Of a stretch of 33,994 nucleotides of DNA, positions 1 through 19,452 are shown one piece after another (the first letter of the stretch is position 1; every line of letters begins with the position of its first letter). The position numbers and the translations under genes are program-made. Below the pieces are notes generated by a model. That model ran no database searches. It worked only from the letters and a program-made list of their open reading frames with translations, and was not told where the DNA came from. The DNA comes from a virus. Lineage: Duplodnaviria; Heunggongvirae; Uroviricota; Caudoviricetes. Location: the IMG/VR virus record IMGVR_UViG_2778261668_000001. One strand, 5' to 3'.

Positions 1-234
1 ATGAAATCAAAAGACACCCTAAAGTGGTTCCCTGCGCAGCTTCCTGAAGTCAGAATTATCCTGGGAGATGCTGTCGTGGAAGTAGCAAAACAGGGAAGAC
101 CTATCAATACCAGAACATTGCTTGATTACATTGAAGGAAACATAAAGAAAAAGTCATGGCTGGATAACAAAGAATTATTACAAACAGCGATATCAGTTCT
201 TAAAGACAACCAAAATTTAAATGGTAAAGTGTAA
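1..234 (+). CDS. Small prophage protein, YdfK/YnaE-like (77 aa); window begins exactly at its ATG
   Basis: ORF MKSKDTLKWFPAQLPEV...; the position next to the pin invertase matches ydfK/pinQ and ynaE/pinR adjacency in K-12 prophages. Family assignment is from memory. Confidence 0.5.
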   Translation: MKSKDTLKWFPAQLPEVRIILGDAVVEVAKQGRPINTRTLLDYIEGNIKKKSWLDNKELLQTAISVLKDNQNLNGKV

Positions 235-613
235 TACCTCCCCTGAAAAATAATTTTTCAATGCATTAAAAAAATATCAACAACTACGTTATTCCGCAAC
301 AACCTACTTTTTTTACCATTTTTCCACTTTAACAACATTTTGCTCCACTTTTCCACGACCAAACAACTTAAAATCTGGTTAAAATAACATACAACACTAT
401 TATTCGTCTTCCTCGAGTCCGCCCGGAGTTCGAAAAACAAACCGAGTTAAAGCCATTTTTCAAAAAATCGATTTTTGGTTACACCAAAATTACGGGACTG
501 CATCCGAATTCGTTTATTTTCGAACGTATACATACAAATATGTACAATAATAAGCGAAATAATTTTTGGATATGCATTATGATATGTACACCAATTTCGT
601 ATAGAGTCTCACT

Positions 614-1204
614 ATGTCTCGAATTTTTGCTTACTGTCGGATATCAACGCTGGATCAGCCCCCCGAAAATCAACGCCGGGAAATCGAAAGTGCAGGTTTT
701 AAAATCAAACCTCAGCAAATAATCGAAGAACACATTAGCGGCTCAGCAGCAACCAGTGAGCGTCCTGGTTTTAACCGGTTGCTTGCTCGCCTGAAATGTG
801 GTGATCAATTGATTGTGACAAAACTGGATCGCCTTGGTTGTAATGCAATGGATATCAGGAAAACAGTGGAACAACTGACCGAAACAGGTATCAGAGTGCA
901 TTGCTTAGCATTGGGGGGCATTGACCTGACCAGTCCAACAGGAAAAATGATGATGCAAGTAATTTCAGCAGTCGCTGAATTTGAACGAGACCTTTTACTT
1001 GAACGCACTCATTCCGGGATAGTAAGAGCCCGGGGCGCAGGGAAACGTTTTGGTCGACCACCTGTGTTAAATGAAGAACAGAAACAGGTGGTATTCGAAC
1101 GAATTAAGTCAGGTGTAAGTATAAGTGCCATTGCCCGGGAATTCAAAACCTCGCGGCAAACCATTTTAAGAGCCAAAGCAAAACTTCAGACACCTGACAT
1201 ATAA
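614..1204 (+). CDS. pin: Serine recombinase / DNA invertase (Pin/Gin/Hin family), 196 aa
   Basis: N-terminal catalytic motif [15 protein letters not shown] with nucleophilic Ser, resolvase core, C-terminal HTH; sits opposite tfa as in e14/Rac/Qin. Confidence 0.85.
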
Positions 1205-1301
1205 AAAATAATCTCGGTGTGAGATGCTTTACGTCTTCCAAGCCCCCTTCCTTGCCGTAAATGGAAAGATACATCTAATTATAGAATTTATATGTTTTAC
1301 C

Positions 1302-1877
1302 CTACGGCAGTGCTGGCCATTCAATATCCTGTGCAGTTGACGTATCAACACGGTTCAGCAATACCCGATACTTTTTCCATGCTTCCAGCAACGAGATTTC
1401 TTCCTCCGTTGCAATTTCCAGATCTGCAGCATCCTGAAGTGGCGCAATATGCTCACTGGCTACCCGCATGAGGCTATTTTTTGTTTCTTCCGCTTCCCGT
1501 ATCCGAAACAGTTTTTCTGCTTCCGCATCCTTCACCCAGGTTGTGCCGTTCCACTTCTGATATTCCCCATCCGGCGACAACCAGGTGACATTTTCTGGTA
1601 ACGGGCCGAGTTCAGAAATAAATAACGCGTCCCCTGATGCCACGTCATAGACCGTTTTTCCCCTGTGGTCTTCAACGAGATGCCATGATGTATCCTCATT
1701 GTTAAAAACAGCCACGAAGCCAGCCGGAATATCTGGCGGTGCAATATCGGTACTGTTTGCAGGCAGACCTGTATGGGGTGGAATATATGCATCACCTTCA
1801 CCAATAAATTCGCCGGTTCCGGCCAGCAGATTATAAATTTTTATGGTCTGTGGATGTTCACTCATTATGAATGCCAT
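1302..1877 (-). CDS. tfa: Tail fiber assembly protein (Tfa)
   Basis: Conserved Tfa N-terminus ([44 protein letters not shown]); start overlaps the stf stop (TAATG). Confidence 0.85.
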
Positions 1878-4800
1878 TATGCAAGCCTCACAATATAGTT
1901 AAATGCGATGTTTTTGACGGTGTTTTCCGCGTTACCAACAGCGTTAACGGTGATGGTGTGTCCATGTGCACCCAGCGCCACAGTGTGTGCATGGGCACCA
2001 ATACCGACAGTATGTGCGTGTGCCCCTGCAGATGCGGCAGTACCAGACAATGAGTGGGTATGTGCTCCATCTGATGATGTCTTCCCTGATATACGGCTCG
2101 TACCTGAGCCAGATTCCTGTGGTACAACTGGTACGTTTGTGACTGAAACCTGGGTATAACCGTTAGGAAAGAGTGCAGTTCTATTAGAATTCGCATATGG
2201 TCCAGAACTCTGGTGTTGGTGCCCACCTGCACTATTTGCTGTCCCGCTAATACTATGTGTATGCGCCCCGGTGTTATTCGTGGACTTAGTACCATAATCA
2301 AACGAACTGGTTGTTTTCGTCCCCAAATCCGTACTGGATGCACTGGCACTGTGGGTATGCGATTTAATACCATCCTGTTCCTGAGACAATACAGCGCGAC
2401 CACTGGCGGGTTTGCCCTTAATTGTCCATCCACGCAGATCAGGGATCACACCAGATGGGTAAGCGGTTGCAAGTTTCGGATATGCTGATTTATCAAAAGT
2501 CTGCCCCTGCATCAGAGCATAACCAGATGGAATTGTGTCTGATGGCCACGGTATCGGTGCCCCTGCAGGATAAAGCTCTGAAGGAGGATAAGCCGTTGTG
2601 TAAAGCTGATCCCATAGCGACCAGTTTGCGTCGGTAGCATCCCGTCGTGAACGAATAAATGCCGGAGCATGGGCACCGCTTGTACCACTCCAGCCGATAA
2701 GCAATTCACCCTCTCCTGCAGCATTCGCACCTTTCATATGAAGCACATTGCCGTAAGTCGTGGGGTAGCCATTTTTATACGCTTCATACATCTGAACGCC
2801 TGGGGTGCCTTGTGTATTGCCACTTAATGCGGCCACCATACCTCTGGACACTAAGGTATTAATGTTGATGTCACCTGAGCCATCAAACTTAACACCATTA
2901 ATATTTACTGGCGTTTGAAGCTTCGTAGCCGTTGAAGCATTACCCTTAATGCCGCCATTAACGGTAAGCGACCCGGTTATTGTGCCTCCTGTTAATTTCA
3001 AAAAGAGTGCATCAATCCATCCAGCGAAACCCGGTTTATTGATATACAAGTTGCCATCATTGGCAAATATGCCACCACCTGGAGTTCTTAATGGTTGCGC
3101 CATATTTGCTAAAGTCAATGCACCGGACATTTGCCCCCCAGACAGAGGCAAGGCACCAATAAACTGATGCGAGCAGTAATAACCACGCCCCTGGTTAAAA
3201 TCAATTACAGTACGGGCATTTATACATTCAGTAGCAGGTTCTGTTACACCCCACTTATATGTAGTTTGACCTGCTGTATAATCAGTTGTCGGTACAATGA
3301 CACTTAACCCTTCCTCAGCAAATACTTTAATCGGAAAAGCTCTGGCCTCAACATAAAATACACTGCAAACATCATCATCTTTAGTGCTTGCGATAATTGA
3401 GTGAATAGACCGTTCCTCAGACTGATATGCCCAGAAATAACCCGCAGCATATGATCCTCTGTCCGACCAACCACCACTTGTAACGATGCCATTAAATTCG
3501 CAGTTATTCATGGGATCATTACCAGCATTCTGTCTTGTTGATATGACCACCCGGCTGGCAAGTTCATCGTTATATCCGGCTGAACGGCGCAATACAATCG
3601 GATACCATTTCCCGTCAACAACATTCGCTGGCGCAGAAAAGGAATACTTACGCATCCCCCTTTTTTGATCAACTTCACCTTTGCTGTAGACGTTAATGTT
3701 GCTCAGGAACCTATCTTTATCAGGTATATCTGCGCCGTTCTGGTCTTTCCGAAGGCGTGTTTCAGCGTTGTCGTATGCAGACTTGACCGCTTTCGGTGTT
3801 GCTGCAAGCGTCTCAGATTCGCTGCTGGTCTCACTGCTGAGCTGTACTATCCCCTTTTTCGTCGTGCTCGCATCCTCAAGCGCCACGGCAGATGCAACAT
3901 CCTCTGCCCGTTTTGCAGCTGTCTCGGCGCGCGTTGCCGCGGATTCTGCCGCATTTTTGCTCTGAGCTGCCTCCGTCGCACTTCCTGCCGCCTCTGTCGC
4001 CTTCGTGGATGCCGTTGACGCACTCTCTCCCGCCGCTGACGCCTGTCTGGTCGCCTCATCTTTTGAAGCAGACGCAGATGATGCCGATGACGCCGCCGAA
4101 CTGGCTGACGATGCGGCTGCCGTTTTTGAGGATTCTGCACTGGTTTCCGACGCTTTCGCGTTCGTCTCGGATGTCTTCGCTGCGGAAGCAGACCTCGCTG
4201 CTGCGCTGGCCTGTTCAGTGGCTTCAGTAACCTTCGTTGTAGCTGTTGAAGCGGACGATGCGGCGCTTTCTGCCGATTTCCCGGCGGCGGTGGCACTGGC
4301 GGCTGCCTCCTCTGCCTTAATGGATGCTTCACGGGCCGATGATGCAGCTACTGTCTCAGAGCCTGCCGCAGCTGAGGCGCTCTGTTCCGCTGCCGTTTCA
4401 GAAGACTTAGCATTCGTCTCTGACGTTTTTGCCGCCTTCGCGGAATTTCCTGCCGCCGTTGCCGAGGAGGCTGCACTGCTGGCGCTTGTGGAGGCGTTCG
4501 TTTCTGATGATTTTGCCGCCTCTTTGGAGGCAGCCGCATCTCTGGCTGAAGTGGCGGCTTCTGACGCTTTCGTCGTCGCAGTGGATGCAGAAGTGGCTGC
4601 TGATTGTTGTGACGCTGCCGCATTCGTTTCTGACGTTTTCGCGGCACCGGCACTGGTGGCCGCCGCGCTTTTTGAGGACTCTGCAGCGGCAGCACTTTTT
4701 GACGCTTCCGTGGCCTTTGTTGATGCCGTTCCTGCGCTGGAAGATGCTGACTGAGCAGACGATGCGGCCTGTTCGGCGGACGTGCTGGCTGCGCGTGCTG

Positions 4801-5251
4801 AGCCTGCGGCATCAGTCGCATGGGTTGCCGCCTCACTGGCAGATGTGCTGGCATCGCTGGCTGACTTCTTCGCGGCTGCCGTGTTCTGTGCCACTACGGA
4901 CGCGTTACGCGCCACCTCTTCCACCATCAGTTCAAAACGGCGCAGTGCCTCCGGACGGGCATCATCCTCCGTCATGGCACCGAGAAAATCATTCAGCGTC
5001 CCCGGCTTTGAATCCTCATACACGGTGATGGTCCCGGCATGTGACGGCGGGAATCCTTCCACCATCAGAATAACGCTGTACTGACCGTACTCAACGTCCA
5101 TGCTGTAACGCCCGGCTTCATCCGGATTTTCTGAGGCCAGCGTGTTCACCACGACCGTGGTACTGTTACGTTTTGCCTTCAGCTGAATGGTGCAGTTCTG
5201 TACCGGTTTCCCTGTTCCGTCTTTCAGTACACCTGAAATCTTTACTGCCAT
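1877..5251 (-). CDS. stf: Side tail fiber protein (Stf; StfR-like), about 1124 aa
   Basis: N-terminus [26 protein letters not shown] and C-terminus [18 protein letters not shown] match the Rac StfR type; long Ala/Ser/Thr-rich repeat block; His-rich HxH tip motifs ([22 protein letters not shown]). Likely ATG at 5249-5251; the ORF-track start at 5257 is GTG. Confidence 0.9.
3850..4880 (-). repeat. In-frame low-complexity Ala/Ser/Thr-rich repeat region of stf (SETNA/KTSET-type units)
   Basis: Reiterated nucleotide and peptide motifs; the long spurious ORFs on other frames and the opposite strand here are artefacts of this GC-rich repeat. Confidence 0.6.
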
Positions 5252-5261
5252 ATTCACCCCA

Positions 5262-5290
5262 CAAAAAAGCCCGCCTGAACCGGCGGGCTG
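5262..5290 (-). terminator. Rho-independent terminator between lom and stf
   Basis: Minus-strand hairpin GCCCGCC-ggttcag-GCGGGC followed by TTTTTTGT. Confidence 0.6.
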
Positions 5291-5315
5291 TCATAACACT
5301 GTGTTACCTGGCTAA

Positions 5316-5915
5316 TCAGAATTTATAACCGACACCCACGATGAAACCGTCAGTGCGCCAGTCACCACTGCCGGAGCCTTCATAAGCAATATCAATGGCC
5401 ACGGATTCGGTCGGGTTAAACTGCACGCCAGCCCCCCACGTCAGAGACGTGTTACTGTGGCGACCATCATCACTTCCGGTCAGCACATCGTGCGTTTTCC
5501 CCTTGTTGTCAGTTACGCGGAGATAATCCCCGGAGAAAGTCGAAACACGGCTGTAAGCCACACCCGCCATCGCATATGCGCTGAACCATTCATTCACGCG
5601 TACAGACGGCCCCGCCATCACGCTGAACCAGCGGTTACGAACGGAATCTTCATGCCAGCGGGTATCGCTGTAATGCGTTTTTTGCTCATCTTCGGCGTTG
5701 GCATAACTGAATGACGTCACCATCCCAAGCGTGTCCGTAAATTCATAACGGTATTTCACGTTAATACCATTCAGATCATCACCGCCTGGCATTTTCGTAT
5801 GAGCATGAATATATCCTGCGCTTAATGTGCTATGGTGTTCTGCTGCACTCACTGTCGTACCCGATACGGTCAGGAATACTGCTGCGGACAAAAGAATTGC
5901 ACATACTTTACGCAT
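5316..5915 (-). CDS. lom: Outer-membrane beta-barrel protein Lom (Ail/Lom/PagC family)
   Basis: Signal peptide MRKVCAILLSAAVFLTVSGTTVSA, alternating beta-strand pattern, C-terminal GYKF; RBS GAGAGG; position between J and stf as in lambda. Confidence 0.9.
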   Translation of the reverse strand: MRKVCAILLSAAVFLTVSGTTVSAAEHHSTLSAGYIHAHTKMPGGDDLNGINVKYRYEFTDTLGMVTSFSYANAEDEQKTHYSDTRWHEDSVRNRWFSVMAGPSVRVNEWFSAYAMAGVAYSRVSTFSGDYLRVTDNKGKTHDVLTGSDDGRHSNTSLTWGAGVQFNPTESVAIDIAYEGSGSGDWRTDGFIVGVGYKF

Positions 5916-5937
5916 AATTACCTCTCACTTTTCTGCA

Positions 5938-5964
5938 ATAAAAAAGGCGCCATTTCTGGCGCCC
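5938..5964 (-). terminator. Rho-independent terminator downstream of the J fragment
   Basis: Minus-strand hairpin GGCGCC-agaaat-GGCGCC followed by a T6 run. Confidence 0.55.
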
Positions 5965-5982
5965 GGTTTGGGTTTTAAACAT

Positions 5983-7224
5983 TCAGCTGATACTGATACC
6001 AGCTGTGGATTTTTTCATAATGACCACAAGCAAATCGCTGATAGTCGCTGAAGGATAATAATTCCCGTTTGACGCAGAAACTGAAAACTCAAGAGTTATT
6101 CCTCCAGAACCGGCTGGCATATCCATGATGCCTGTGTAAATGGCTGTAACATCGTTGGTCGATTTGTCATAAATTACAGAACCATTCTTTTTTACAACAA
6201 GACGACAGGATGAATAATATTCACTGTTTGTGGATGCCTGCCGGTGCTTCGCCCCACGAAACGCAACAGCAGGAATGACAATTTGTCTGTCATATTTTTG
6301 ATCATCATCTATCCTCACAGTAATCGTACCTGACGGCCACGGTTTAAATTCTGATTCGCGCGGATCATGTGGAAAAGCCTTTCCCACCGCTTTGACAATA
6401 TCGCCCTCAATCTGACTGGCAGACAGTTTTCCTTTTATCAGACAGTTCTCATTAATCGTGACATTGTTGAGCGTCCCGGCGTTCGCATTCACACTGCCAC
6501 TGATATCCGCATTTTTAGCAGTCAGCTTTCCGTCAGGTGTCAGGGAGAATGCCGGAGGATTACCACCACTGGTAATCGTGGGAGCAATAAGGAACTTGAT
6601 CAGCGCCTCATTAATAAACGTCTGTCCGCCCTGTGTGACCAGTGCAGGAGTGGTGTTACCATTCGCCGGGTTAATAAATGCCACCCGGTCTGCAGCCAGA
6701 AGCACCTGACTCTGCATGCCGTCCGGGGTATTCTCAATACCGGCACCGATACCCGCAATATAAAGGCGTCCATCCTTCATCTGTTGCAGCTTCACAGCCC
6801 ACATACTGTTCAGGTTATTACTGGTGTCAACCTGAACCTTCTGTATCTGCTGGATTGCTGCGCTCTGGTCTTTCAGTGTCTTGTTAACGGTCTCGGTGAT
6901 TTCATTGCTGACATTCGTAATGGATGTCCTGATTTCAGCCAGATCCGGGGCAAGCTGACCGTTATCAATTTGTGTCCACAGCTCCTGGGCCAGATGTGTT
7001 TTCCCTATCTCTCCTTTGAAAAAATCCAGATAGCCGGACGCATCATTACTCGGCTGGCCAACAGCTTCCACAAATACCGATTTGCCGACGGTGTTCACAC
7101 TGCGAACATAAAAATAATAATCATGGCCCGGCCTGATATTGATACTGGCAGCTATCCAGCACTGCGCCGTACCAAGATAACGCGCGCTGGTTTCAACCTG
7201 CCTGATATCGGTAAACCGGGGCAA
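5983..7224 (-). pseudogene. J: C-terminal fragment (about 410 aa) of host-specificity/central tail fiber protein J; N-terminal two-thirds deleted
   Basis: Sequence [20 protein letters not shown]...[13 protein letters not shown]...[10 protein letters not shown] resembles the lambda J C-terminal region as recalled; no ATG (ORF-track start is TTG); lies one stop codon after V in the same frame. Confidence 0.75.
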
Positions 7225-7242
7225 ATGATGAGTATCGTCCTG

Positions 7243-7986
7243 TTAACCTGCGGCGCTGACAGCCACCGCAGCCACTGCCACAAAATCGCCGTCAGAAGTC
7301 ATGCCCACAATGCTGACACTGCCCTGCTTCACGCCTTTCACCGTGGCCACAAGCCCGTTCAGGGTCACCGTGGCAGTCTGTGGATCTGTCGAATGCACAC
7401 TGATCGCTTTGTCACTGGCTCCGTCAGGTTTTACTGTAAAGGTCAGCGTGGTGGTTGCTCCCACTTTTACACTGGCAGATGCCGGTGCCACCGTCAGCCC
7501 GGTAACGCTCACTGTTTCAGTGCCTTCCTCTGCCAGATACGGACGCCCCACACCGCTGATTTTCACTGTGCGGGTCATCACGTCTTTTGAGGCAATGGTT
7601 TTACCCAGTGAGCTCAGCCAGCCACGGAAAACATCAACAGTGCCGTTGGGATATTTGATACGAAACGCGCAGACTTCACCGGAGTCGAACAACTGAACCA
7701 GTTTTTTCTGCCCGCTGTCACCCGGACGCCAGGCCAGCGTCGCCGAAGTATCACCGACGGATTTCTGCCCCTGGGTTGTCGTTTTCCAGTCTGCATCTTC
7801 ATCATCGAGATAAGTGTCATCTTCTGCATCAGCGGTCATTTCGCCAGGTTGCAGATCCTTCACCATCGCAAGACGCAGCCAGTCAGTGTCCGATAAAGGG
7901 TTCGCAAACGCATCGCCCTTGCCGGTGTACATCCAGAACGTCGTTCCCGCACCTTTCGTTTTTGCCAGTGGATTTGGTGTGGTCAT
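7243..7986 (-). CDS. V: Major tail protein V
   Basis: Resembles lambda gpV (GAGTT.W.Y.G.GD..ANPLSD.DW, YLDDEDADW, NGTVDVFRGW) with C-terminal Ig-like domain; strong RBS AGGAGGTG before ATG at 7986. Confidence 0.9.
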   Translation of the reverse strand: MTTPNPLAKTKGAGTTFWMYTGKGDAFANPLSDTDWLRLAMVKDLQPGEMTADAEDDTYLDDEDADWKTTTQGQKSVGDTSATLAWRPGDSGQKKLVQLFDSGEVCAFRIKYPNGTVDVFRGWLSSLGKTIASKDVMTRTVKISGVGRPYLAEEGTETVSVTGLTVAPASASVKVGATTTLTFTVKPDGASDKAISVHSTDPQTATVTLNGLVATVKGVKQGSVSIVGMTSDGDFVAVAAVAVSAAG

Positions 7987-7997
7987 TGCCACCTCCT

Positions 7998-8399
7998 TTA
8001 ATTCGTGTACGTGATCTGGTACGTGATTTCCGCCATCGCCCAGGTGGCCATCTCATTATCACGTTGATAGTTAAAACCGAGAGGGATCAGGGTGTCGATG
8101 AGTCCGGAAAGTGCCGGTATATCATTCAGGGCCGGGAAAATGGTGCTCTCCATCCACATATCCAGCTCTGAATCCGGTGCCTGTGCCCGGATGAAGACAG
8201 CAATATGCAGAACAGCCTGCCAGTCATCTTCATCCGTCATTTTTCCGGTGTACTGAGCATCACTCAGCCACACCGCCACGGCAGGCAGTTCCTGCGCATC
8301 AATAAATGCCGGAAGCCCGTCAAAAAACGTGGCGCTGTCTCCACACTGTTCCCGAAGGCGTGCCAGTACGGCCTGGCGGATTTGTGTATGTCGGTTCAT
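7998..8399 (-). CDS. U: Tail terminator protein U
   Basis: Resembles lambda gpU (ATFFDG.PA, ELPAVAVWL, AQYTG, PDSELD.WMES, DIPALS); ATGA overlap with the Z stop. Confidence 0.85.
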   Translation of the reverse strand: MNRHTQIRQAVLARLREQCGDSATFFDGLPAFIDAQELPAVAVWLSDAQYTGKMTDEDDWQAVLHIAVFIRAQAPDSELDMWMESTIFPALNDIPALSGLIDTLIPLGFNYQRDNEMATWAMAEITYQITYTN

Positions 8400-8974
8400 C
8401 GGGTCAGCCATAACCTCAGTTGTTGTTTCAGTGCATACCCCAGCTGTTTCGGCATTTCCGCAGCAATGATGCGGTCGCGGGCATCTTCAAATGCCTGTGT
8501 CAGCGGTCCGGAAAGCGGGATTTTCACCACATCAATGGGGTAACGATTTTTGCCATCAATACGCCGCATCACATGCCAGCGACCATTCGCCAGTTGCTGA
8601 ATAAACGCATCCCGGAAAAGATATTTACCCACCTTCAGCACACTGCCACGGTACTGCAGTTTTCCACCACGCCGGGCCAGTCTGACCCGGGCTGTCCCCA
8701 GCTTAATGGCGGGCAGATTGCCCCGGTTAACGCGGATCCTGGCCGTCATTTTTCCTGACGGACTGGCTTTAAACACCCGGACACGCTGACGTACCAGTTT
8801 CAGGGGGATCCCTTTCACCTGGTTATCTCCCGCAACGGTATTCCCGGCAACCTGCCGGGTGGCAACCGAGACCGCTTTCTGTGCCACACGGTTTATCGCC
8901 CATGCGCTGGCCTGTGGCACCATACGGGTATCAAGGCTGTTCAGATTACGGATGGCATTCTCAAGCCCCTTCAT
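8396..8974 (-). CDS. Z: Tail completion protein Z
   Basis: 192 aa, same length and position as lambda gpZ, between the FII-like gene and U. Confidence 0.75.
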   Translation of the reverse strand: MKGLENAIRNLNSLDTRMVPQASAWAINRVAQKAVSVATRQVAGNTVAGDNQVKGIPLKLVRQRVRVFKASPSGKMTARIRVNRGNLPAIKLGTARVRLARRGGKLQYRGSVLKVGKYLFRDAFIQQLANGRWHVMRRIDGKNRYPIDVVKIPLSGPLTQAFEDARDRIIAAEMPKQLGYALKQQLRLWLTR

Positions 8975-8985
8975 CCCACACCTCT

Positions 8986-9261
8986 TTACTCAATAAAGAT
9001 CATTGGCTTACCGTTAAAGCGTTCATGCCGTGTGACCGTCCATTGTTGTCCGTCATAAACAACGCGATCCCCGCGCCGTGGGCGGTATCCCGAAGAAAAC
9101 ACCACCAGAGAGACCGCAGGTCCGGACAGAGCATTCAGTTCTGCCAGTGTTTCTCCCGGGATCACAGTCATATCGACATCATTAATCGAGGCTGTCTTTC
9201 CCATCTTTCTGACCGTGATAGCATCCATACGCGCTGCCAGCCGGGAAAAGGGATCAGACAT
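8986..9261 (-). CDS. Head-tail connector protein (FII-position; Gifsy-2-type small head protein)
   Basis: 91-aa ORF between the head gene and Z; overlaps the upstream gene stop. Function inferred from position. Confidence 0.55.
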   Translation of the reverse strand: MSDPFSRLAARMDAITVRKMGKTASINDVDMTVIPGETLAELNALSGPAVSLVVFSSGYRPRRGDRVVYDGQQWTVTRHERFNGKPMIFIE

Positions 9262-9577
9262 TGAGTTTTACCGGCACTTCTTCTGCACTGGTTCCGGCAT
9301 CTGCCCAGACAACCCCGACCAGCGGATCAGAGCCGCTGTTAGTCAGCTGAACTTTTCCGGACTTCAGATAAACCTTCTTACCCGTTTTCATGTCATCCGT
9401 TTTCAGCTTAGGCAGCATAAACACACCTTCGGTCATGCCGTCGCCTGTTTCACCCTGTGGAATATCGGTCAGCGCCACCGCAAAAACATCGCCCACCTGC
9501 ACCAGATCTCCGCTGCTGATGGCTGCACTGGCAACAATCGCCACCGTTTTTCCTTCTTCTACAAAATTCTTTGCCAT
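9254..9577 (-). CDS. Small head protein (decoration or FI-position), about 107 aa
   Basis: MAKNFVEEGKTVAIV...; SD GGAG 7 nt upstream; lies just after the capsid terminator. The ORF-track N-terminal extension overlaps terminator hairpins and is rejected. Confidence 0.45.
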   Translation of the reverse strand: MAKNFVEEGKTVAIVASAAISSGDLVQVGDVFAVALTDIPQGETGDGMTEGVFMLPKLKTDDMKTGKKVYLKSGKVQLTNSGSDPLVGVVWADAGTSAEEVPVKLNV

Positions 9578-9617
9578 AACTGTCTCCGCACAGCCCCGTT
9601 CAGGGGCTGATTTCAGG

Positions 9618-9641
9618 TACAAAAAAAGCCCTTACGGGCCA
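9618..9641 (-). terminator. Weak intrinsic terminator or attenuator just after the major capsid gene
   Basis: Minus-strand GGCCC-gtaa-GGGC hairpin (GNRA loop) followed by T7. Confidence 0.5.
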
Positions 9642-9663
9642 TCAGAGTTGTTGTCTGCGACGT

Positions 9664-11622
9664 TTACGCCGTACATTTCACCAGACCGCGGTGATCAACT
9701 GGCGCGACACCGGCGTCAATACGCACTTTCGTTGTCACGCCATCCACACTGAAGCCCTCCATCTGATCAATATATGGCGTATCCACACCGTTGAGATAAG
9801 CCACTTCAATCGTATCGGAGCCTTTGGACGCAGCCAGGTAGAAAGTGGTCTGGCTGTTATCATCAAGACGAGGCTCTGCAATAACGGTCGCAAAATCTTT
9901 CACCGGGTTAATAATACCGGCGTTAATGTCAGCCCCCTTGACACTTGAGGAGCGAATGACCTGGTTAGCAACAGACTCCATCGCCGTCGGTACCAGTACG
10001 AACGCAGGACGAATATTCAGATGACGCTCCCCCTCTTTCTGAACGCGCATCAACTGGCGGGCTTTATCCAGCGATGCCACGTCCATTGCAGCGCTCTCCA
10101 GTACGTTTGCATGTTTCGCTTTATCGAACAGACTTACATTATCTGTGGAGATTTTCGGGTTAGACGTCAGAATGGCATAAACCAGATCGGCAATAGTGGA
10201 TTTCGCCGCACGGCCCAGTTTCATCGGGACATCGGTCAGCATATTCAGATCATCATTGATAATGGCCTGACGGGTGATACTGAACAGCTCGCCATAGGTC
10301 GCCAGTGCAATAGTGGCCTGTTTATCTCCGGTGGTGACGTATTTATATTCCGCCCCTTCACGCACCTGACGCAGAGCACTGAAGCCCCCCATACCCACAC
10401 GATGGGCAATTTTAAAATCAGACAACTGACCTTTCCGCGTCCACTGTTCATAGGTTTCAGGGGCATCTTCCCAGCCCTGCAGAATGGCTTTGTTCGCAAC
10501 ATCCAGCAGAATATTACCGAAGTCAGACGTACTGTGTGTGAACGCCGCACCGACCATCTGCATCGGGTTATAACTGGAAACCCCAATACCCCGTTCAGTC
10601 AGTGACATACGGGCATATTCACGCAGGGTCATCCCGTTGTAGACATTATCACGTTCGGTTTTTTCAAATCCGGCACGCGCCATCAGCGCCTGGCGGATCC
10701 CGTCCCCCACAAAATTACCGTTACCGGCATAAATATGAGCCGGGGTATTTTTATTGGATGGCGTGGACTCGCGCCCCATCTCGTTCAACAGCTTTTCGCG
10801 GGCCTGCTCCAGCGAACATTCAGGATCGGCAAGACACTGAGCCTGCAGCGTCTGATAACGCCCGCCAAACATGGCAAACAGATCATTAATACCGTTTACA
10901 CGCGCTTTTTGCTCTGCCAGTACCTGCGCACGGATACTGTTTTCATCCACCACGGGTGCTGCTGCCTGCACTGGCGTCCGGGAGGCTGCAGGTTCATCAT
11001 CCTGTACGCGTGGAGCACTGTTGCGTGGCGGAGTAATCATGTTTCGAATGGATTCCGGCATCTTTTTAAATTCCTCTGTACGTTTTGACTGAATACATGC
11101 CATTGCCTTAACGGCTGGCGTTACCTGATCAGCAAATCCATGTGCCAGACATTCGGCACCGGACATCCAGGTCTCATCCGCCAGCATGGCAGCAATTTCA
11201 TCGGTGGTTTTCCCGGTTTTCTGTGCATAAGCGGGTAACAGAACCGCCTCAACCTTATCGAGCAGGTCGGCATAGGTGCGCATGTCCTCCGCATCACCGC
11301 CCGTAAAGCCAAATGGTTTATGAATCATCATGAAGGTGTTTTCCGGCATAATGACCGGGTTTCCCACCATCGCAATGACCGACGCCATTGACGCCGCCAC
11401 ACCGTCGACATAAACGGTAATGGACGCACCATGTGTTTTCAGCGCATTAAAAATGGCGATGCCTTCAAAGACATCGCCACCCGGTGAATTAATATGGAGA
11501 TTAATGTGGGTGATATCGCCCAGTGCATTCAGATCACTGATAAACTGCTTCGCTGTAACACCCCAGAAACCAATCTCGTCATAAATATAAATATCCGCGT
11601 CACTCTGGTGACCAGCCTGCAT
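9664..11622 (-). CDS. Prohead protease (ClpP/S14-like) fused to major capsid protein
   Basis: N-terminal ClpP-like domain (HINSPGGDVFEGIAIFNAL...MASVIAMVG) and C-terminal HK97-fold capsid-like region. ATG at 11620-11622 (MQAGHQSDADIYIYDEIGF) chosen because the longer ORF overlaps the portal gene. Confidence 0.8.
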   Translation of the reverse strand: MQAGHQSDADIYIYDEIGFWGVTAKQFISDLNALGDITHINLHINSPGGDVFEGIAIFNALKTHGASITVYVDGVAASMASVIAMVGNPVIMPENTFMMIHKPFGFTGGDAEDMRTYADLLDKVEAVLLPAYAQKTGKTTDEIAAMLADETWMSGAECLAHGFADQVTPAVKAMACIQSKRTEEFKKMPESIRNMITPPRNSAPRVQDDEPAASRTPVQAAAPVVDENSIRAQVLAEQKARVNGINDLFAMFGGRYQTLQAQCLADPECSLEQAREKLLNEMGRESTPSNKNTPAHIYAGNGNFVGDGIRQALMARAGFEKTERDNVYNGMTLREYARMSLTERGIGVSSYNPMQMVGAAFTHSTSDFGNILLDVANKAILQGWEDAPETYEQWTRKGQLSDFKIAHRVGMGGFSALRQVREGAEYKYVTTGDKQATIALATYGELFSITRQAIINDDLNMLTDVPMKLGRAAKSTIADLVYAILTSNPKISTDNVSLFDKAKHANVLESAAMDVASLDKARQLMRVQKEGERHLNIRPAFVLVPTAMESVANQVIRSSSVKGADINAGIINPVKDFATVIAEPRLDDNSQTTFYLAASKGSDTIEVAYLNGVDTPYIDQMEGFSVDGVTTKVRIDAGVAPVDHRGLVKCTA

Positions 11623-11635
11623 CCTGAACCAGGAA

Positions 11636-13144
11636 TTATTCTTCGGACTGGTCGTCGGTGTGCTGCGGCTCCTGTCGTTTCGTTGCGGCACTGCTGCCTC
11701 CTTTATCACTGGCCGGATCGGTATCAAATACCAGATCCAGCTTGCGGTTTTCATCAATTTCGGCCTTGCGCCGACGTTTGACATCATCCGGATTACGACC
11801 ACCAGCACGTACCCAGTCTGATTCTGTCGCCGCTCCACCACGAATCTGGATTTTCCAGGCCTCAGCCTCCTTAACAGGGTCAATCCACGGCATCACTGGT
11901 CCGGAATACACCGCGGTATACAGTGAAGAACGGTCAAGATCGCGGGGTAACCTGATAACACCGGATGCCACAGCCTGTTTCAGCCAGGCACGATACATCG
12001 GGCGGGTGACGGCACCAATAAACCAGTCCTGCAGGATCAGGTAGCCATCAGTAGACTCAACCAGTTCCTGACGCTGGGCGCTGTAAGTGCCGTTATAGTT
12101 GCGTGCCGTACTGGAAAAACTCAGACGACTGCCCGCCGCCACGGCACGCAACTGACCATTACGAAAAGTTTCAAGGTTAGGATTGGGACGATCCGACTTC
12201 ACCATTCCGATTTCTTCGCCGGGTTTCAGATCGTCGTAAATAATGCCTGGCTGAATGGTAAGCTCGCGTTCATTCTCCTTGCTGCCATTACCATCCGGTT
12301 CATAGCTCTGCCCGTCGCCTTTCCGGATGTACATCCCCAGAGCAGCGGCGATCCTTGCTGCAGTCAGCTCAGAATCTTCATACTCTTTCAGGGCACTGAG
12401 GCGGATCAGCACACCGGACAACAAAGACGTCCCGCGCATCTGGTGCAGACGGCGAACAAATTTAAGATGCAGCATTCGCTCTGCATCCACTTCTTTGGTT
12501 TCCATCTGCCGCCCGGATACGGGACGGCTTTTATACACCAGATATTTTTCGGGACGCCCCCAGTCATCAACAAACACGCCCTGATTCAGCCTGTTGCTCT
12601 CATCACTGGTCATGGGAATAAAGTCCGGCTCGAGCGCCTCCAGCCAGAAATGAACACCGGCAGAAGGCGTCAGGCTGTTTATGCGCCCGGAAACCATCTG
12701 GGCAAACACCTCACCATCGCGCAGCCAGGTACGCAGCATCAGACGTTCCAGCATCGGACGGGTAAACTGCCCGGTGACTTCCGGACTGACAGACCATTCA
12801 CTCCATCGGGTGCGTATCTCCGCTGCCAGATCACGGGCAATGGCCCCATTGCGTAATACCGGATGTGGCTCGACAATAATCCCGTTTTTCCCCACCACCC
12901 GTTCTTCCAGCTTGTCAAATACACCAATAACCAGATCGTGGTTGTTATCAAGGTAACGGGCCTGCTCACGTAACGACACGGCCCCGTACTGGCTTAACTG
13001 GTCGGCAGTTCGGTTTTCCCGCCGGGCTTTGTGTGTCCGTGTCGTTTTTACGGCCTCATAAGCCTGGATCACCGCACGGGAACGCAGCCTTGCCGCTTTC
13101 CATCCTGGTGAAAAAACGCCAATCACATCATCAAGAATTGCCAT
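11636..13144 (-). CDS. Portal protein
   Basis: About 500 aa with acidic C-terminus, between W-like and protease-capsid genes; start ATG overlaps the W stop (TGATG). Confidence 0.85.
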   Translation of the reverse strand: MAILDDVIGVFSPGWKAARLRSRAVIQAYEAVKTTRTHKARRENRTADQLSQYGAVSLREQARYLDNNHDLVIGVFDKLEERVVGKNGIIVEPHPVLRNGAIARDLAAEIRTRWSEWSVSPEVTGQFTRPMLERLMLRTWLRDGEVFAQMVSGRINSLTPSAGVHFWLEALEPDFIPMTSDESNRLNQGVFVDDWGRPEKYLVYKSRPVSGRQMETKEVDAERMLHLKFVRRLHQMRGTSLLSGVLIRLSALKEYEDSELTAARIAAALGMYIRKGDGQSYEPDGNGSKENERELTIQPGIIYDDLKPGEEIGMVKSDRPNPNLETFRNGQLRAVAAGSRLSFSSTARNYNGTYSAQRQELVESTDGYLILQDWFIGAVTRPMYRAWLKQAVASGVIRLPRDLDRSSLYTAVYSGPVMPWIDPVKEAEAWKIQIRGGAATESDWVRAGGRNPDDVKRRRKAEIDENRKLDLVFDTDPASDKGGSSAATKRQEPQHTDDQSEE

Positions 13145-13362
13145 CAGAACCTCGCCAGCCGGTACCCAGGATGCCCCCGTCGTCGTGTAATCAGAGCCGC
13201 AAGGCGGCGCTCCCACTCCTGCCGTCCCTGCCGGATCTCAGATAAGTTTTCCATGGTCATCTGCTGACCATTAAAGGTGACGGATTTTCCGTCCAGCACC
13301 GCCATTTCAGCTTCCGTATAACGCTGAATCATGGCTTCGATATCATTCTGGTTCATAACCAT
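13144..13362 (-). CDS. Head-tail joining protein, gpW-like
   Basis: About 70 aa ending RRRGHPGY, like lambda gpW (...RRRGPAGF); lies between terminase large subunit and portal. Confidence 0.6.
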   Translation of the reverse strand: MVMNQNDIEAMIQRYTEAEMAVLDGKSVTFNGQQMTMENLSEIRQGRQEWERRLAALITRRRGHPGYRLARF

Positions 13363-15455
13363 CCTCCGGAAGTCAGCCAGGGGTTAACATCGTCAGTTAC
13401 TGTTTTCTTCCGTTTTTGTTTTTTAACAGGCGTGGATACCGGTTCCGGTGAGGGTGACGGTTCGGTACTGTCCGGGACACACTCCAGCCAGGTTTCCAGG
13501 CTCGCCCACTCCGGTGCATCCGGCCAGCGGATCTTTTCGTATCCATGCAGAATGACCAGAGCCTCGGCATACACCATCAGGTCAAAAGCTTCGTTGGCAC
13601 CGCGACCCGGCTTACTCCATTTCCCGTCACTACTCCGCTCTTCATACGTCAGTTCGTCGTAAAACCAGCTCCCCAGCCAGTCAGGGAAATGCACATAGCC
13701 GGGACCTGGAGAGTCACGCCATAACGCGTTATTCACCCGGTCTTTCAGGGCATCCGTCTGAAGAAGCCAGAGCGGCACATCACCTGCGGCCTGCGCCCGT
13801 CGGCCCGTTCGTCCGGTGTTATCAGGGAATGTACGGGTGATCAGTTTTGCGCGCCGGATGCTGTCGCCCTTAAACAGGTAAATACGTTTACCAAGGCCAT
13901 CACGACGGCAACGACGCCAGAATTTATAGGCATTATCAGTGACCCCGTCTTCACCGCCGGAGTCCACCGCCATTGCCATCAGTCGCATTTGTTGAGAAGG
14001 ATCGGAGGCCAGCGGCCAGCTTTTATGAAAAACATCCGTCAGCAGGACATCCCAGTCTTCCGGATAGCTGGCCGGATCAATTCGCTGGCTCTCCCCGTCG
14101 CTGTCACCGCGCAATGACTGCGTGATGTTGTAACGATCAATAATCCAGCGTTCGCCACGGCTGCCATAGCCCGTTACCTGAACCACAAAACGGCGATGAC
14201 GTCCCGCCTGCACATCCACTGTCGCCACCAGGAAATTAACGCCATCCGGCACACTGCGGGAAGGAACTGGCTCTGCCCGCTGCTCAAGCAGTTCACTTTT
14301 TCGTTGCTCCATGCTGGCACGGGGAAGATAAGGTAATCCCCAGTCGGTATTGATAACCGTCTTGAGTGTTTCTTCACTTCCGGTTGTCTCGTATTCCTGT
14401 TCTGCAGTAAGCAGTTTGTAAACGAGTTGCGAGAGTGTCTGGTAAGCAGCTGCCGGACCCTCCATCCAGAATGACGCAATACGTGAGCGTCGGGGATCAC
14501 CATAACGACTGCCATCCGCATTGATGGATTCACCATCCCGCAACCAGACCCCACGTCCGTTCAGCTCACGTTTTTGTTCAGGCATAATCCGTCCTGAACA
14601 GGAAGGACACTGAATATAAGCCGCCTCACTTGCCAGCACGGGATCGGCAATATCACGGAAACCAGCAACCACATCGCCGCAGGGCTGAAAATACTCACCA
14701 CAGTGTGGACAGGGCCAGTACCAGCGACGGCGATCGCCACGGTTATAGAGCGACAGTATCCCCGTGGTTGGTGGAGCCTCATGCGGTGAAGTCCGTCGCC
14801 ATTTCACATCCTTCACATCCCTGCCGGGGGAACTCTCCACCAGCGTCATACCACTGGACATAAATGTGGTGGTACGTTTTGAGGCAAGAGAGAAGGCATC
14901 CCCCTCGCCATCAATATCTTCCGGAAAACGGTCATAATCCGTCAGCGCCACGCATTTATAATCTGATGAGGACATGATATTGACTGACGGCCAGCCGATT
15001 TTCAGGTAGTTGCCAGCAAGGAATGTTCTGTCATAAACGTTGTTGTCATTTTTGTTCGGACTCAGGCGACTGACCACTTCCGGGCTGACGCGAAACGTTC
15101 TGGCAAGTCGTTTTTTGGAGTGTTCGCGGGCTTTTTCCTCCGTCATCTGAATGATCAGCATATCAGCAGGATCGCAAATCACATTGTAAATCACCCAGCC
15201 GTCAATCAGGCCGATAGTCTTGCCAGTTCGTGCCGGGCCAACAAATATCACTGCGTCGTATTCACGCGAGGCCAGGCAGTTCATCGGCTCAATAACATAC
15301 GGTGCCACCAGCGGATCCCACGGGACTGAATTCCCGGCCCCCATGGGCACCCGCATATACTGAGCAACGGCATCAGCAACCAGCATTCGTCTCGGTGCGC
15401 GAAGGATATAACCTGAATCGGTTCGTGCTGCCTTTGCGGTTTCCTGATTCAGCAT
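13353..15455 (-). CDS. Terminase large subunit (lambda gpA family)
   Basis: 700 aa, Walker A-like GPARTGKT, follows the small subunit with overlapping stop/start. Confidence 0.9.
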   Translation of the reverse strand: MLNQETAKAARTDSGYILRAPRRMLVADAVAQYMRVPMGAGNSVPWDPLVAPYVIEPMNCLASREYDAVIFVGPARTGKTIGLIDGWVIYNVICDPADMLIIQMTEEKAREHSKKRLARTFRVSPEVVSRLSPNKNDNNVYDRTFLAGNYLKIGWPSVNIMSSSDYKCVALTDYDRFPEDIDGEGDAFSLASKRTTTFMSSGMTLVESSPGRDVKDVKWRRTSPHEAPPTTGILSLYNRGDRRRWYWPCPHCGEYFQPCGDVVAGFRDIADPVLASEAAYIQCPSCSGRIMPEQKRELNGRGVWLRDGESINADGSRYGDPRRSRIASFWMEGPAAAYQTLSQLVYKLLTAEQEYETTGSEETLKTVINTDWGLPYLPRASMEQRKSELLEQRAEPVPSRSVPDGVNFLVATVDVQAGRHRRFVVQVTGYGSRGERWIIDRYNITQSLRGDSDGESQRIDPASYPEDWDVLLTDVFHKSWPLASDPSQQMRLMAMAVDSGGEDGVTDNAYKFWRRCRRDGLGKRIYLFKGDSIRRAKLITRTFPDNTGRTGRRAQAAGDVPLWLLQTDALKDRVNNALWRDSPGPGYVHFPDWLGSWFYDELTYEERSSDGKWSKPGRGANEAFDLMVYAEALVILHGYEKIRWPDAPEWASLETWLECVPDSTEPSPSPEPVSTPVKKQKRKKTVTDDVNPWLTSGGWL

Positions 15456-15946
15456 TACTCCTCCTGCTGTAATTCCTCCTCATCATCCGCACCTGCTTCG
15501 GTCACCCGCAGGGCTATCTGATCGCGCAGATCATCAATAATGGACTGAACACGGCTCACAGCGGCAGGCTGCAGGCCGCAGTCACGTTCCAGAATATCCG
15601 GTAATGTCTCCAGCACCTGCACGACCGCTTTTGCCCAGATGGCAAACTCCCGTCTGACATCACTGGCCGGAATGAGTTGTGCCGTTTCCTGTTCGAACTT
15701 AAGACGCTCACGTTCAGACTGATACCAGGCTTTGCGTTCATGTGGATCCATTTCGCCCTCAGCAACCGGCGGTGGTAACCCCATAAATTCAGTCAGAATA
15801 TCGGTCAACCGGTATAGCTTGAGTTTGTCATGTCCACCAGCGGGACGAATGTTTTTCAGTCTTGCCACGACAGTCTGGCGGTGCAGACCAGATAAAGCCG
15901 CCAGTTGATTAATATTCAGCACCAGGTTTTTCAACTCATGATCCAT
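15455..15946 (-). CDS. Terminase small subunit (Nu1-like, HTH)
   Basis: 163 aa with N-terminal HTH (LNINQLAALSGLHRQTV), acidic C-terminus, strong SD GGAGGA; immediately upstream of the large subunit. Confidence 0.75.
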   Translation of the reverse strand: MDHELKNLVLNINQLAALSGLHRQTVVARLKNIRPAGGHDKLKLYRLTDILTEFMGLPPPVAEGEMDPHERKAWYQSERERLKFEQETAQLIPASDVRREFAIWAKAVVQVLETLPDILERDCGLQPAAVSRVQSIIDDLRDQIALRVTEAGADDEEELQQEE

Positions 15947-15965
15947 ATTTCCTCCGGAGAGCTTT

Positions 15966-16470
15966 AAACATGCATCGTGCGAACAACTTTAAGAAAACGC
16001 GTTCGATGTCGAACAAAAAACACTCAATTCGACATACAAAAAACAAATAACCATTAATAATCAATAAGATGCAAAGATGATGGTGGCCGATAAAAATGCA
16101 AAAACTAGCCTTTTTCCGCGACGCTCCCGCCCCGTGGCAGGGGCCCCCACCGGGAGGACCCGACAGCCTGACAGCCGTGACGAGCATCTGATACAGCGCT
16201 TTACATAATGGCATAGGAATAATTCAGAAGGACATCACAGCATGCCCACACAAATTAGTGTGAGTGTCCTGTTTCTTCCTACGCACAGGACTGACGAGCA
16301 TGAGGGGAAAATACGCGAACCGAAATGCCTTATCTTTAGAAATGCAGCCGGCATCCGAACTGGACGATATTGTAAATTCACCTAAATACGAGGCATTGCT
16401 GTAGTTGAATTGCAGTACTGTATTAGCCTGACAGTGACAGAATACGATATTGACTCTGTCACTTGTGAAA
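15966..16470. other. Candidate cos / packaging-initiation region
   Basis: Non-coding region 5' of the terminase small subunit with inverted ATGTCGAA / TTCGACAT motifs (about 15990-16040), an A-rich tract, then a GC-rich segment (16110-16180). Confidence 0.3.
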
Positions 16471-16498
16471 TGGTCAGAATGGTTAGCAGTTATGGTGA

Positions 16499-16705
16499 TC
16501 AGTCAACCACCAGGGAATAATCCTTCGTATTCTTATCGTGCTTTACTAACGCGGCCTCAATTGCCCTGAATGCTTCCAGAGATACTTGATGTGCTATACA
16601 TGCAATTACAACATCCGGGTAACCCATCGAAATGGTGCTATTAAGCATAGTTTTTACACGAACCTGCTCCTGGGAGGGGGCATCAGTGTATTGATCTTTA
16701 TGCAT
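16499..16705 (-). CDS. Hypothetical small prophage protein (68 aa)
   Basis: ORF only; lies between the cos candidate and the GnsB-like gene, as do small unknown genes in Qin. Confidence 0.4.
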
Positions 16706-17000
16706 TTTGTCGCTCCATGCGTTTGCTCTTCACTTGCGGCTAAAAATATAACGTCAAATCACTCAGCATGAAAGTGTGAAAGTTTCAGCGCGTTTCCCTT
16801 ACATAATCTGTCGTTTGTATTCTCTCCAGGCATACCGGAAAGACTAGGTATTGTCACACAACCAATACCACCGACTATCGAGACTTATATCTATTCGGTA
16901 ATGTTTAAATATAACAAAACCCCGTAAAAACGAGGTTTATGGGTAAATTGTATTGTTGAATAGCATCTGATAAGAAATTGATGCTAATACTATAAACACA

Positions 17001-17177
17001 CTAGATTAAATCAATCTTGATATCATAGCTTTCAAGACCAGTCATTTTTTCCCGTGCAGTAAACTGGATACTGGTAACTTCTTTCCCGGTCTTTTTCTTA
17101 AGCTCAATAATTTTTTTTGTTATATATTCAGAAATATCTGCTTCTGTTTTTGTTTTTAACTCTTCAATGTTCATCAT
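17001..17177 (-). CDS. gnsB: GnsA/GnsB family protein
   Basis: MMNIEELKTKTEADISEYITKKIIELKKKTGKEVTSIQFTAREKMTGLESYDIKIDLI closely resembles GnsA/GnsB as recalled; SD AAGAGG. The ORF-track N-terminal extension is rejected. Confidence 0.75.
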   Translation of the reverse strand: MMNIEELKTKTEADISEYITKKIIELKKKTGKEVTSIQFTAREKMTGLESYDIKIDLI

Positions 17178-17346
17178 TTCCTCTTTTAGTCTGTTATGAC
17201 TTTCCTGGTACACAGTAGTGTCAATTATATGGAGCAAACGTATAAAAGATAAGATGAAACATCGCAATAATCAACATACGACAGTCTAAATTTCGCACAA
17301 ACAGATAAAGATGATTATCCTTTATTATCAAGGCATTAGAATGAAA

Positions 17347-17577
17347 TCAATTCAAGAGTCTCATTGCTGCTTCCAGAATTTCTTCTGAAGTTACATGTCG
17401 ATCCGCTGCTACATAAATGACTTTATGATCTCCGGTCAGAGATGGAAACCCTGCAGCCATTACAGTGAGATGTGTTGTTTCGCCATTTGGATATTCACGC
17501 ATGATGGTGTTAACTCCGGTCATCACTGGCACTACCATTGCTGGTTCAGAGTTAAAAAAAACTATTATTTTTTTCAT
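17347..17577 (-). CDS. Hypothetical small protein (76 aa)
   Basis: ORF starting MKKIIVFF; position equivalent to ynfN in Qin. Function unknown. Confidence 0.4.
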   Translation of the reverse strand: MKKIIVFFNSEPAMVVPVMTGVNTIMREYPNGETTHLTVMAAGFPSLTGDHKVIYVAADRHVTSEEILEAAMRLLN

Positions 17578-17848
17578 GATGTTACCGTAATATGTGAGTA
17601 TCCATCGACTAGACACTAAGCAAAAAAGCTCCCGAAGGAGCCTTCATTTTCACTTTCTTAAATCTAACGACAGACGGCTAACATTTAAGTATTGTGAAAT
17701 ATTATCAAATGTAATCATCATTGATTTACAAAAGATACATTTTGCCCCGAAAGGATTCCTGTCAGAAACATCAAAAGATGATGTTCTATACTGAGAACCA
17801 TGGCAACACGGGCATCTAAAGTGAATATGGTTTGTAATATTTTCTACC

Positions 17849-18061
17849 TCAAAGTGCCACTACATGAACAGCCGCGGGGCCTTTAGGTCCGTTCTCAATA
17901 CCAAATTCGACTTGCTGATTCTCAGTTAACGTTTTGAAATCGTTGCTCTGAATAGCTGAGAAATGGACAAACACATCTTTGCTACCATCTTTCGGCGTGA
18001 TGAAACCAAAACCTTTTTCAGGGTTAAACCATTTCACTAAACCAGTCATTTTGTTAGACAT
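17849..18061 (-). CDS. cspI: Cold-shock protein, CspA family (CspI-like)
   Basis: [38 protein letters not shown] with RNP1/RNP2 motifs; long AT-rich leader at 18062-18424, typical of csp genes. Confidence 0.9.
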
Positions 18062-18424
18062 TATTATTACCTTTTGAAGAAGTTAGCCCTTGGGCAGAAT
18101 GGTCCGAAAAAAAATATCAGAGAGAAAAACCAACAAGGAAATCTCAAGAGGTACAAATAATAAAATTATAACAATGACTGCTTCAGATAATTTTGTAACA
18201 AACCAGAACACCATTAACGCATGATTAACCAACCATAGCAAGGATTACTTTTGTAAAGAAAAACACACGAATGAAACAATAGCTTTATTTATTAATAAAA
18301 CGTGTCATTCTGTCTAATGACCTTTTATCTTACCCTTAAGATTTCAAGGATTTTGACTCATGGAAGAGTCCTTTTTATTTAAATTTCACATTCAGCGCTA
18401 AAAATAATCCGATTTAATATTAAT

Positions 18425-19452
<1,028 letters not shown>

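Follow-up and report, generated by a model that had tools for sequence, protein, structure and literature searches.

What does it mean that a lambdoid prophage carries a complete tail tube gene followed directly by only the far end of gene J? To answer this, we analyzed the window, a 33,994-nucleotide stretch from a tailed phage (IMG/VR record IMGVR_UViG_2778261668_000001), in which the prophage gene V and a remnant of J (J′) lie next to each other on the minus strand. The reading that we favor, with a probability of roughly 0.93, is a single recent deletion of 8,442 bp in the late operon of an mEp460/Qin-type lambdoid prophage inserted beside prfC, i.e., an ordinary defective prophage.

Translation of the minus strand from 7995 down to 5983 gave the end of V (...AVAVSAAG) followed by a TAA stop at 7245-7243. 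V, the major tail tube gene (7243..7986, minus strand, 247 aa), is full length, and its start is not the GTG at 7992 assumed in the original prediction. Both the annotation and a strong Shine-Dalgarno sequence (AAGGAGG, -12.9 kcal/mol) place it at the ATG at 7986. The ORF matched the Pfam family Phage_TTP_12 over the entire model (positions 1-135 of 135, E = 6e-67) and carries a C-terminal Big_2 domain. Thus, it has what is expected of lambda gpV: a full tube domain, a C-terminal Ig-like domain, and its own start with a Shine-Dalgarno sequence. It is also 100% identical to the 744-nt annotated CDS WP_000211109.1 of Escherichia coli CH4799.

The late genes upstream of V (7998..15946, minus strand) are intact according to Pfam, the gene calls of the source contig, and 100% identity to CH4799. 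U (7998-8411, Pfam Phage_tail_U) and Z (8396-8974, Minor_tail_Z) come first. On the basis of the source-contig gene calls and Pfam, they are followed by an FII-like gene, a decoration gene, a fusion of a ClpP-type protease with the major capsid protein, the portal, W, the large terminase (13353-15455), and the small terminase (15455-15946), all of them on the minus strand. The operon therefore runs in lambda order, from small and large terminase through W, portal, protease/capsid, decoration, FII, Z, and U to V. The lambda-like gene order up to V that had been noted initially was thus confirmed, although the head genes are not strictly those of lambda, protease and capsid being a single ClpP-MCP fusion.

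Beyond the V stop, the same frame continues with QDDTHH and LPRFTDIRQ and stays open until ...STAGISIS and a stop codon at 5983, in agreement with the arrangement originally described. The resulting ORF, which begins 18 nt past the V stop and has 413 aa, has no ATG at its beginning, the first in-frame ATG being 147 codons past the V stop. The F of LPRF is encoded by a hybrid codon created at the junction described below. The J-derived part (5983..7212, minus strand) corresponds to J residues 754-1162 (409 aa) plus the stop codon, as established by Pfam and by 100% identity to the 3′ end of CH4799 gpJ, close to the ca. 410 residues of an ATG-less C-terminal J fragment that had been claimed. Pfam domains appear in the order Ig_J_second, Phage_Tail_Tip (E = 1e-30), and Ig_GpJ_C (E = 3e-39, full model), but the first of them is entered at model position 39 of 105. 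Entry in the middle of a domain indicates a truncation and not a short natural protein. J′ aligned with residues 755-1131 of lambda gpJ at 54% identity. Following the domain layout of J (PMC11101478), the remnant contains part of the second Ig/FNIII domain, the helical shaft, the fiber prism, and the C-terminal receptor-binding domain. The fiber and receptor-binding portion of gpJ is therefore represented (Phage_Tail_Tip and Ig_GpJ_C), while the N-terminal hub domains responsible for tube closure and nucleation of the tip complex (residues 1-753) are absent. As for the alternative that the 413-aa ORF might be a complete protein with its own start in homologues, the sequence was found there as the tail end of a 1,162-aa J. 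The shared frame of V and J′ is a coincidence with a prior chance of one in three. In annotations, the 413-aa ORF should be labeled a J pseudogene remnant and the prophage defective (tail-less).

The source of the window is a 410-kb contig (PTRZ01000002.1) of the E. coli draft assembly GCA_002965025.1, which is 100% identical to positions 1-17224. In this contig, as in E. coli CH4799 (NZ_CM166346.1), the ydfK end of the prophage adjoins prfC. At this same chromosomal site, CH4799 carries the intact series V-G-T-H (tape measure)-M-L-K-I-J (1,162 aa)-lom-stf-tfa-pin-ydfK, so that the endpoints of the missing segment could be mapped to the base by alignment to this intact relative, as had been suggested. 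On the V side, all 7,563 nt before the junction agreed with CH4799, and on the J side the 7,213 nt from the junction onward showed no true mismatch either; the single one reported by BLAST falls within the imperfect overlap at the junction itself. Together, the flanks are 100% identical to the intact prophage over 14.8 kb. The early region, in turn, is a mosaic with respect to CH4799 (97 to 99.5% identity, with some segments replaced). Hence, the two prophages are relatives with a very recently common late region, and not parent and offspring overall.

What the window has lost is L001 7564-16005 of CH4799, that is, 8,442 bp comprising G, T, H, M, L, K, I, and codons 1-753 of J, about two thirds of that gene. 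A tblastn search with CH4799 G, T, H, M, L, K, I, and J against the whole 34-kb window retrieved nothing beyond J 752-1162, while V was recovered at 100% in the same search. Both this search and the alignment bear out the proposal that these seven genes and most of J are missing. Without G/GT, H, M, L, K, I, and a full-length J, the tail module is incomplete, which makes the element a defective member of the lambdoid group. Moreover, in comparison with the intact prophage that a close relative has at this locus, essential morphogenesis genes were lost and the scar can be mapped, so that the element is a cryptic prophage derived by deletion. The same genes are present elsewhere in the family. 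Along with CH4799, the mEp460/Ayreon/cdtI group shares with the window V (98 to 100% DNA identity), the late gene order, and the terminator hairpin after V; however, all of them carry G, T, H, M, L, K, I, and the full 1,162-aa J between V and lom, whereas the window is without those 8,442 bp.

The junction could be read base by base (7213..7215, minus strand) by alignment to both parental sequences. A hybrid codon, TTT, stands there in place of J codon 753 (ATT). Agreement with the left parent extends through 7214, and from 7214 downward the sequence agrees perfectly with the right parent, so that the T at 7214, inside an imperfect CGG(T/A)T, is the sole base common to both. On the left, the break lies 29 nt past the V stop, in the 4-base loop of a stem-loop (GCCCCGG-UUAU-CCGGGGC-U6). 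This structure forms in the intact relative but no longer in the window, and the annotations of phages Ayreon and mEp460 list it as a terminator. On the right, the break falls in J codon 753 and cuts Ig_J_second at model position 39 of 105. Between V and J′ there remains a piece of the former V-G intergenic spacer (7215..7242, minus strand), aligned base by base to CH4799 L001 7535-7563, which encodes the QDDTHH codons and a fortuitous TTG (7224-7222) and keeps only the 5′ arm of the hairpin (GCCCCGG, 7222-7216).

No shared k-mer of ≥8 nt was found within ±100 nt of either breakpoint, and we discarded homologous recombination for this reason. A homology of 1 nt together with a left end inside a hairpin loop points to one event of illegitimate recombination. 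In such an event, the loop of the terminator downstream of V would have been joined to J codon 753 by a recombination independent of homology. Replication may have slipped at the hairpin loop, or a break may have formed there and been followed by end-joining; these are the most plausible routes. The product would be what we see here, an intact V, a spacer of 28 nt, and a J′ pseudogene with neither promoter nor ATG.

A different explanation is that the junction is a false join in a short-read draft and that the real prophage is intact. The source is indeed a draft assembly, no complete genome contains the junction, and lambdoid prophages are rich in repeats and often misassembled. Nevertheless, assemblers collapse at repeats longer than the k-mer, and here a single nucleotide is common to both sides, with no k-mer of ≥8 nt shared within ±100 nt, so that repeat collapse was rejected. 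The join is also far from the ends of a long contig, and the sequence to either side of it is normal. In addition, the 413-aa ORF that spans the junction is on record in one NCBI contig and one Logan assembly, although both possibly come from one read set. We therefore consider an assembly artifact very improbable and retain the deletion as a real event.

We then looked at the distribution of the junction. A megablast search with the junction region did not find it in any of 5,426 complete E. coli genomes, and exact scans with a 45-nt junction sequence gave zero matches among GTDB species representatives and zero among JGI metagenome contigs. Among 50,697 phage records compared by megablast, none covered both sides together, V and J matching as separate places. 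A functional phage with the V-J′ layout, which the original prediction had considered as an alternative, was therefore dismissed, since none of these records shows such an arrangement. The junction is private to one strain or clone.

Only two records, FDAARGOS_433 and IH5, covered at least 80% of the junction-spanning query, with 88% identity, and they carry a different deletion, an H′::J′ fusion (in IH5 judged by its matching hit pattern). Two more independent deletions were found, one in UMNF18, where a truncated V directly abuts an N-terminally truncated J, and another in strain 410, where a truncated tape measure adjoins lom. These sister prophages resemble the window in family, operon, and outcome (loss of tail tip and tape measure) but differ from it in the endpoints, which makes them separate events. 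The closest in layout is UMNF18, with V abutting J as in the window, but there V itself is cut short and J is almost complete. In FDAARGOS_433, unlike in the window, the H-J fusion is annotated as one protein-coding gene, an example of how gene callers and RefSeq may present deletion scars as normal proteins.

The position of J′ in frame with V raises the question of whether it could be expressed. The original prediction had suggested stop-codon readthrough or initiation at TTG, and the data did not favor either. TAA is read by both release factors, and readthrough at such a stop is expected to be very rare. The V stop has the context TAA-C, and the six codons downstream are former intergenic spacer. 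With the junction in one strain only, there is neither a conserved leaky context nor a conserved downstream frame, as would be expected for programmed readthrough. A Shine-Dalgarno scan including every in-frame ATG, GTG, and TTG of J′ gave for the TTG an AGGA located 13 nt upstream, with -4.0 kcal/mol, while the values of real starts in the window range from -5.6 to -12.9. Of the sites inside J′, the two best (-5.1 kcal/mol at 6717 and -5.7 kcal/mol at 6705) were not convincing and would yield only a fragment lacking the helical shaft. A promoter scan of the minus strand found no promoter-like site. These features suggest that J′ is probably silent.

The contrary reading is that J′ works as a separate protein, translated after reinitiation at TTG 7224 or joined to V through readthrough of its stop, which might act as a soluble receptor-binding trimer blocking the surface receptor at lysis. 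Below the truncated FNIII/Ig domain, no module of the central fiber is missing from J′. The 413-aa ORF was predicted by a gene caller, and reinitiation is conceivable at a TTG located 18 nt past the stop of the highly translated V and in its frame. The main reason for not dropping this idea is the part of J that is left. J′ starts ca. 41 residues after the start of the recombinant lambda fragment gpJ713, a folded trimer with nanomolar affinity for LamB (PMC11101478), and an MBP-gpJ fusion blocks maltoporin channels (PMC555588). Both constructs contain nearly the same part of J (helical shaft, fiber prism, and receptor-binding domain) (PMC11101478, PMC555588). However, they were engineered, tagged, and overexpressed, whereas J′ lacks a proper start, opens within the FNIII-2/Ig domain, and shares only 54% identity with lambda gpJ.

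Against a functional J′ also stand the TTG start with its weak and too distant Shine-Dalgarno (-4.0 kcal/mol at 13 nt), the failure to find a promoter-like site on the minus strand, a junction that cuts a domain midway, and the lack of a signal peptide route to the cell surface. Furthermore, an arrangement private to one strain and without divergence from the intact parent gives no sign of selection. We regard a functional J′ protein as highly unlikely. The same slim chance applies to the scenario in which ribosomes on the V message would reinitiate at the TTG and an induced cell would release a free trimeric J′ fiber, comparable to recombinant gpJ713, that would coat the receptor of its neighbors and protect kin from related phages; if it were true, the deletion scar would have created a new "decoy" protein.

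With J′ taken as a probably silent remnant of the deletion, the consequences for the phage can be judged from the lambda tail assembly pathway. In lambda, J initiates the tail and is joined by I, L, and K. H then enters with G/GT, and M follows; V polymerizes only once these are in place, and U and Z finish the tail. Without an initiator complex of J, I, L, K, H, M, and G/GT, V would not polymerize into tails. Since these components are gone, the prophage on its own would be unable to build tails, and a tailless phenotype is to be expected by analogy with lambda. The analysis covered the 34-kb window and 21 kb of the source contig, and other prophages of the same genome may carry tail genes.

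The rest of the phage program appears intact, including the genes for the repressor, Cro/CII-like regulators, replication, Q, lysis, terminase, portal, capsid, and integrase. Pfam detected Peptidase_S24 with HTH, HTH_3, and Phage_CP76 in the window, and the annotation of the near-identical CH4799 region includes Q, essQ, rrrQ, rzpQ, and a tyrosine recombinase. Thus, the regulatory and lysis set of a lambdoid phage is represented by an integrase, a CI-type S24 repressor, Cro- and CII-like regulators, Q, and holin/lysozyme/Rz. Induction would lead at best to DNA-filled tailless heads and cell lysis, and any spread of the element would depend on a second lambdoid phage, as a donor of tails or as a partner for repair by recombination.

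Lambdoid prophages made defective by deletions are frequent and remain capable of induction and packaging (PMC2669165). In O157, co-resident prophages can help such elements to be released and transferred (PMC2669165). This kind of help, together with head, packaging, regulatory, and lysis modules that look intact, could be taken to mean that the tailless state is an evolved strategy, a satellite-like parasite that forms its own capsids and borrows the tails of a helper, as capsid-forming PICIs do. Nonetheless, V, U, Z, stf, and tfa are still present, although they serve no purpose in the absence of a tail tip, and the window alone has 34 kb with a full lambdoid layout and not that of a PICI. 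A small element with satellite-type regulation and capsid and packaging genes without tail genes is not what we found. Besides, both flanks of the scar are identical to the sequence of an intact phage and the arrangement occurs in one strain only, which puts the element one mutational step away from that phage. We give the satellite strategy almost no credence, and the simple loss of the tail genes by deletion remains the preferred reading.

This kind of element is already known, a freshly defective lambdoid prophage in the course of ordinary prophage decay, and its importance beyond annotation is small. Among its closest counterparts are the Rac and Qin prophages of E. coli K-12, which share with the window the right-end array (lom)-stf-tfa-pin-ydfK/ynaE-ynaM/ynfT, with a deletion scar abutting it. 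In Rac, the series is ynaA (H′, a tape-measure fragment)-lomR-stfR-tfaR-pinR-ynaE, and in Qin, nohA (a terminase fragment)-stfQ′ (truncated)-tfaQ-pinQ-ydfK. Several internal genes of Qin (cspI, cspB, cspF, gnsB, ynfN, essQ, rrrQ, rzpQ, and ydfT) are also shared by the window through the near-identical CH4799. However, decay in Rac and Qin is old and far advanced, with heads lost, IS insertions, and pseudogenes, whereas the window shows one clean deletion with undiverged flanks and apparently intact head, packaging, lysis, immunity, and integrase genes. It provides a clean first step of prophage decay, resolved to the base, toward remnants like those of K-12. The Sp prophages of O157 Sakai are similar: lambdoid as well, they have morphogenesis genes inactivated by deletions, frameshifts, or IS elements and are nevertheless often inducible and packaged (PMC2669165). 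That work was experimental and covered many prophages (PMC2669165), while the prophage described here was read from its sequence alone.

Downstream of J′, four genes are intact, as had been stated. Three of them, whose Pfam families were taken from the gene calls of the source contig, are stf, for the side tail fiber (1877-5251, minus strand), tfa, for tail fiber assembly (1302-1877, minus strand), and the pin recombinase (614-1204, plus strand). Each is 100% identical to the full-length annotated CDS of CH4799. A search for inverted repeats of a Pin-invertible segment around stf and tfa gave only weak pairs at the level of chance. The fourth gene, lom, encoding an Ail/Lom outer membrane protein (5316..5915, minus strand), matched Ail_Lom over the full model (E = 6e-123) and is likewise identical to the CDS of CH4799. 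Their persistence had been interpreted as a retention of conversion genes, which we did not find justified. The four genes simply lie outside the deleted interval, and the flanks have no substitutions with respect to CH4799. With flanks showing no divergence, the deletion is too recent to read selection from what remains. Besides, stf, tfa, and pin are not conversion genes, and lom is the only candidate for lysogenic conversion. This gene is bordered on either side by terminator-like hairpins, at 5964-5945 and 5289-5268.

Two sister prophages of E. coli also carry deletions in the tail module. In the FDAARGOS_433 sister prophage, the 5' portion of the tape measure gene is fused to the end of the tail-tip gene J, and this H'::J' scar lies at positions 5014-6540 of the corresponding locus L005 (NZ_CP023899.1, 373746-375272). 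The deletion is independent of the one that produced the V-J' arrangement in the window. The fusion product, of 508 aa, is carried in RefSeq as an ordinary gene, not a pseudogene, under the label "phage tail tip domain-containing protein," and strain IH5 gave the same two-piece match pattern. In UMNF18, the major tail tube gene V is cut at its C terminus and directly adjoins a J cut at its N terminus (V'::'J scar, positions 3015-6757 of locus L006). This is another independent deletion, in a prophage that also lacks most of the head genes.

The allele at window positions 5200-7218, covering the J C terminus, lom, and the start of stf, is rare in E. coli. Among 5,426 complete E. coli genomes, only CH4799, which carries an intact relative of the prophage, matched the full stretch at >85% identity, and E. 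fergusonii accounted for most of the 14 other members listed for its 90% protein cluster, the remainder belonging to E. coli and Salmonella. The rarity of the allele in E. coli, together with the predominance of E. fergusonii among these listed members, suggests that this host-range end was recently exchanged between species.

Within 614-5257, the side tail fiber and assembly genes (stf and tfa) are adjoined by a pin recombinase gene. No alternative fiber segment is present in this interval, and an inverted-repeat search around stf/tfa found no convincing inverted crossover sites flanking the fiber end. The pin invertase appears to have nothing to invert, as also seems to be the case in the cryptic K-12 prophages Rac and Qin. 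The many long ORFs in the other five frames at 3600-5100 were discarded as composition artifacts, since stf is Ala/Ser rich and of low complexity there.

The early region (24804-29617) is a mosaic compared with that of CH4799. A Dam-type adenine methyltransferase (25408-26094) takes the place of the CH4799 LexA-family gene, and the repressor/Cro region (28382-29432) had no BLAST match in CH4799 at an E value of ≤1e-20. This prophage and the one in CH4799 are likely to be heteroimmune, although their late genes are identical.

Scattered among the lysis genes, at 16300-22100 and 1-234, is the Qin-type set of small genes for cold shock and stress (cspI, cspB, cspF, ymcF, ynfN, gnsB, and ydfK), as deduced from the annotation of the CH4799 region, which the window matches at 99.5%. 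The holin and lysozyme genes flank an ORF of 190 aa with a TTG start and a DUF1327 (YdfR-like) domain (19774-20346, minus strand); the CH4799 annotation treats its counterpart as an incomplete pseudogene of the YdfR family. Finally, the ClpP-like protease and the major capsid protein are encoded by a single fused gene (9664-11883, minus strand; annotated as 675 aa), whereas lambda has separate C, Nu3, and E genes; the gene order is nevertheless lambda-like.
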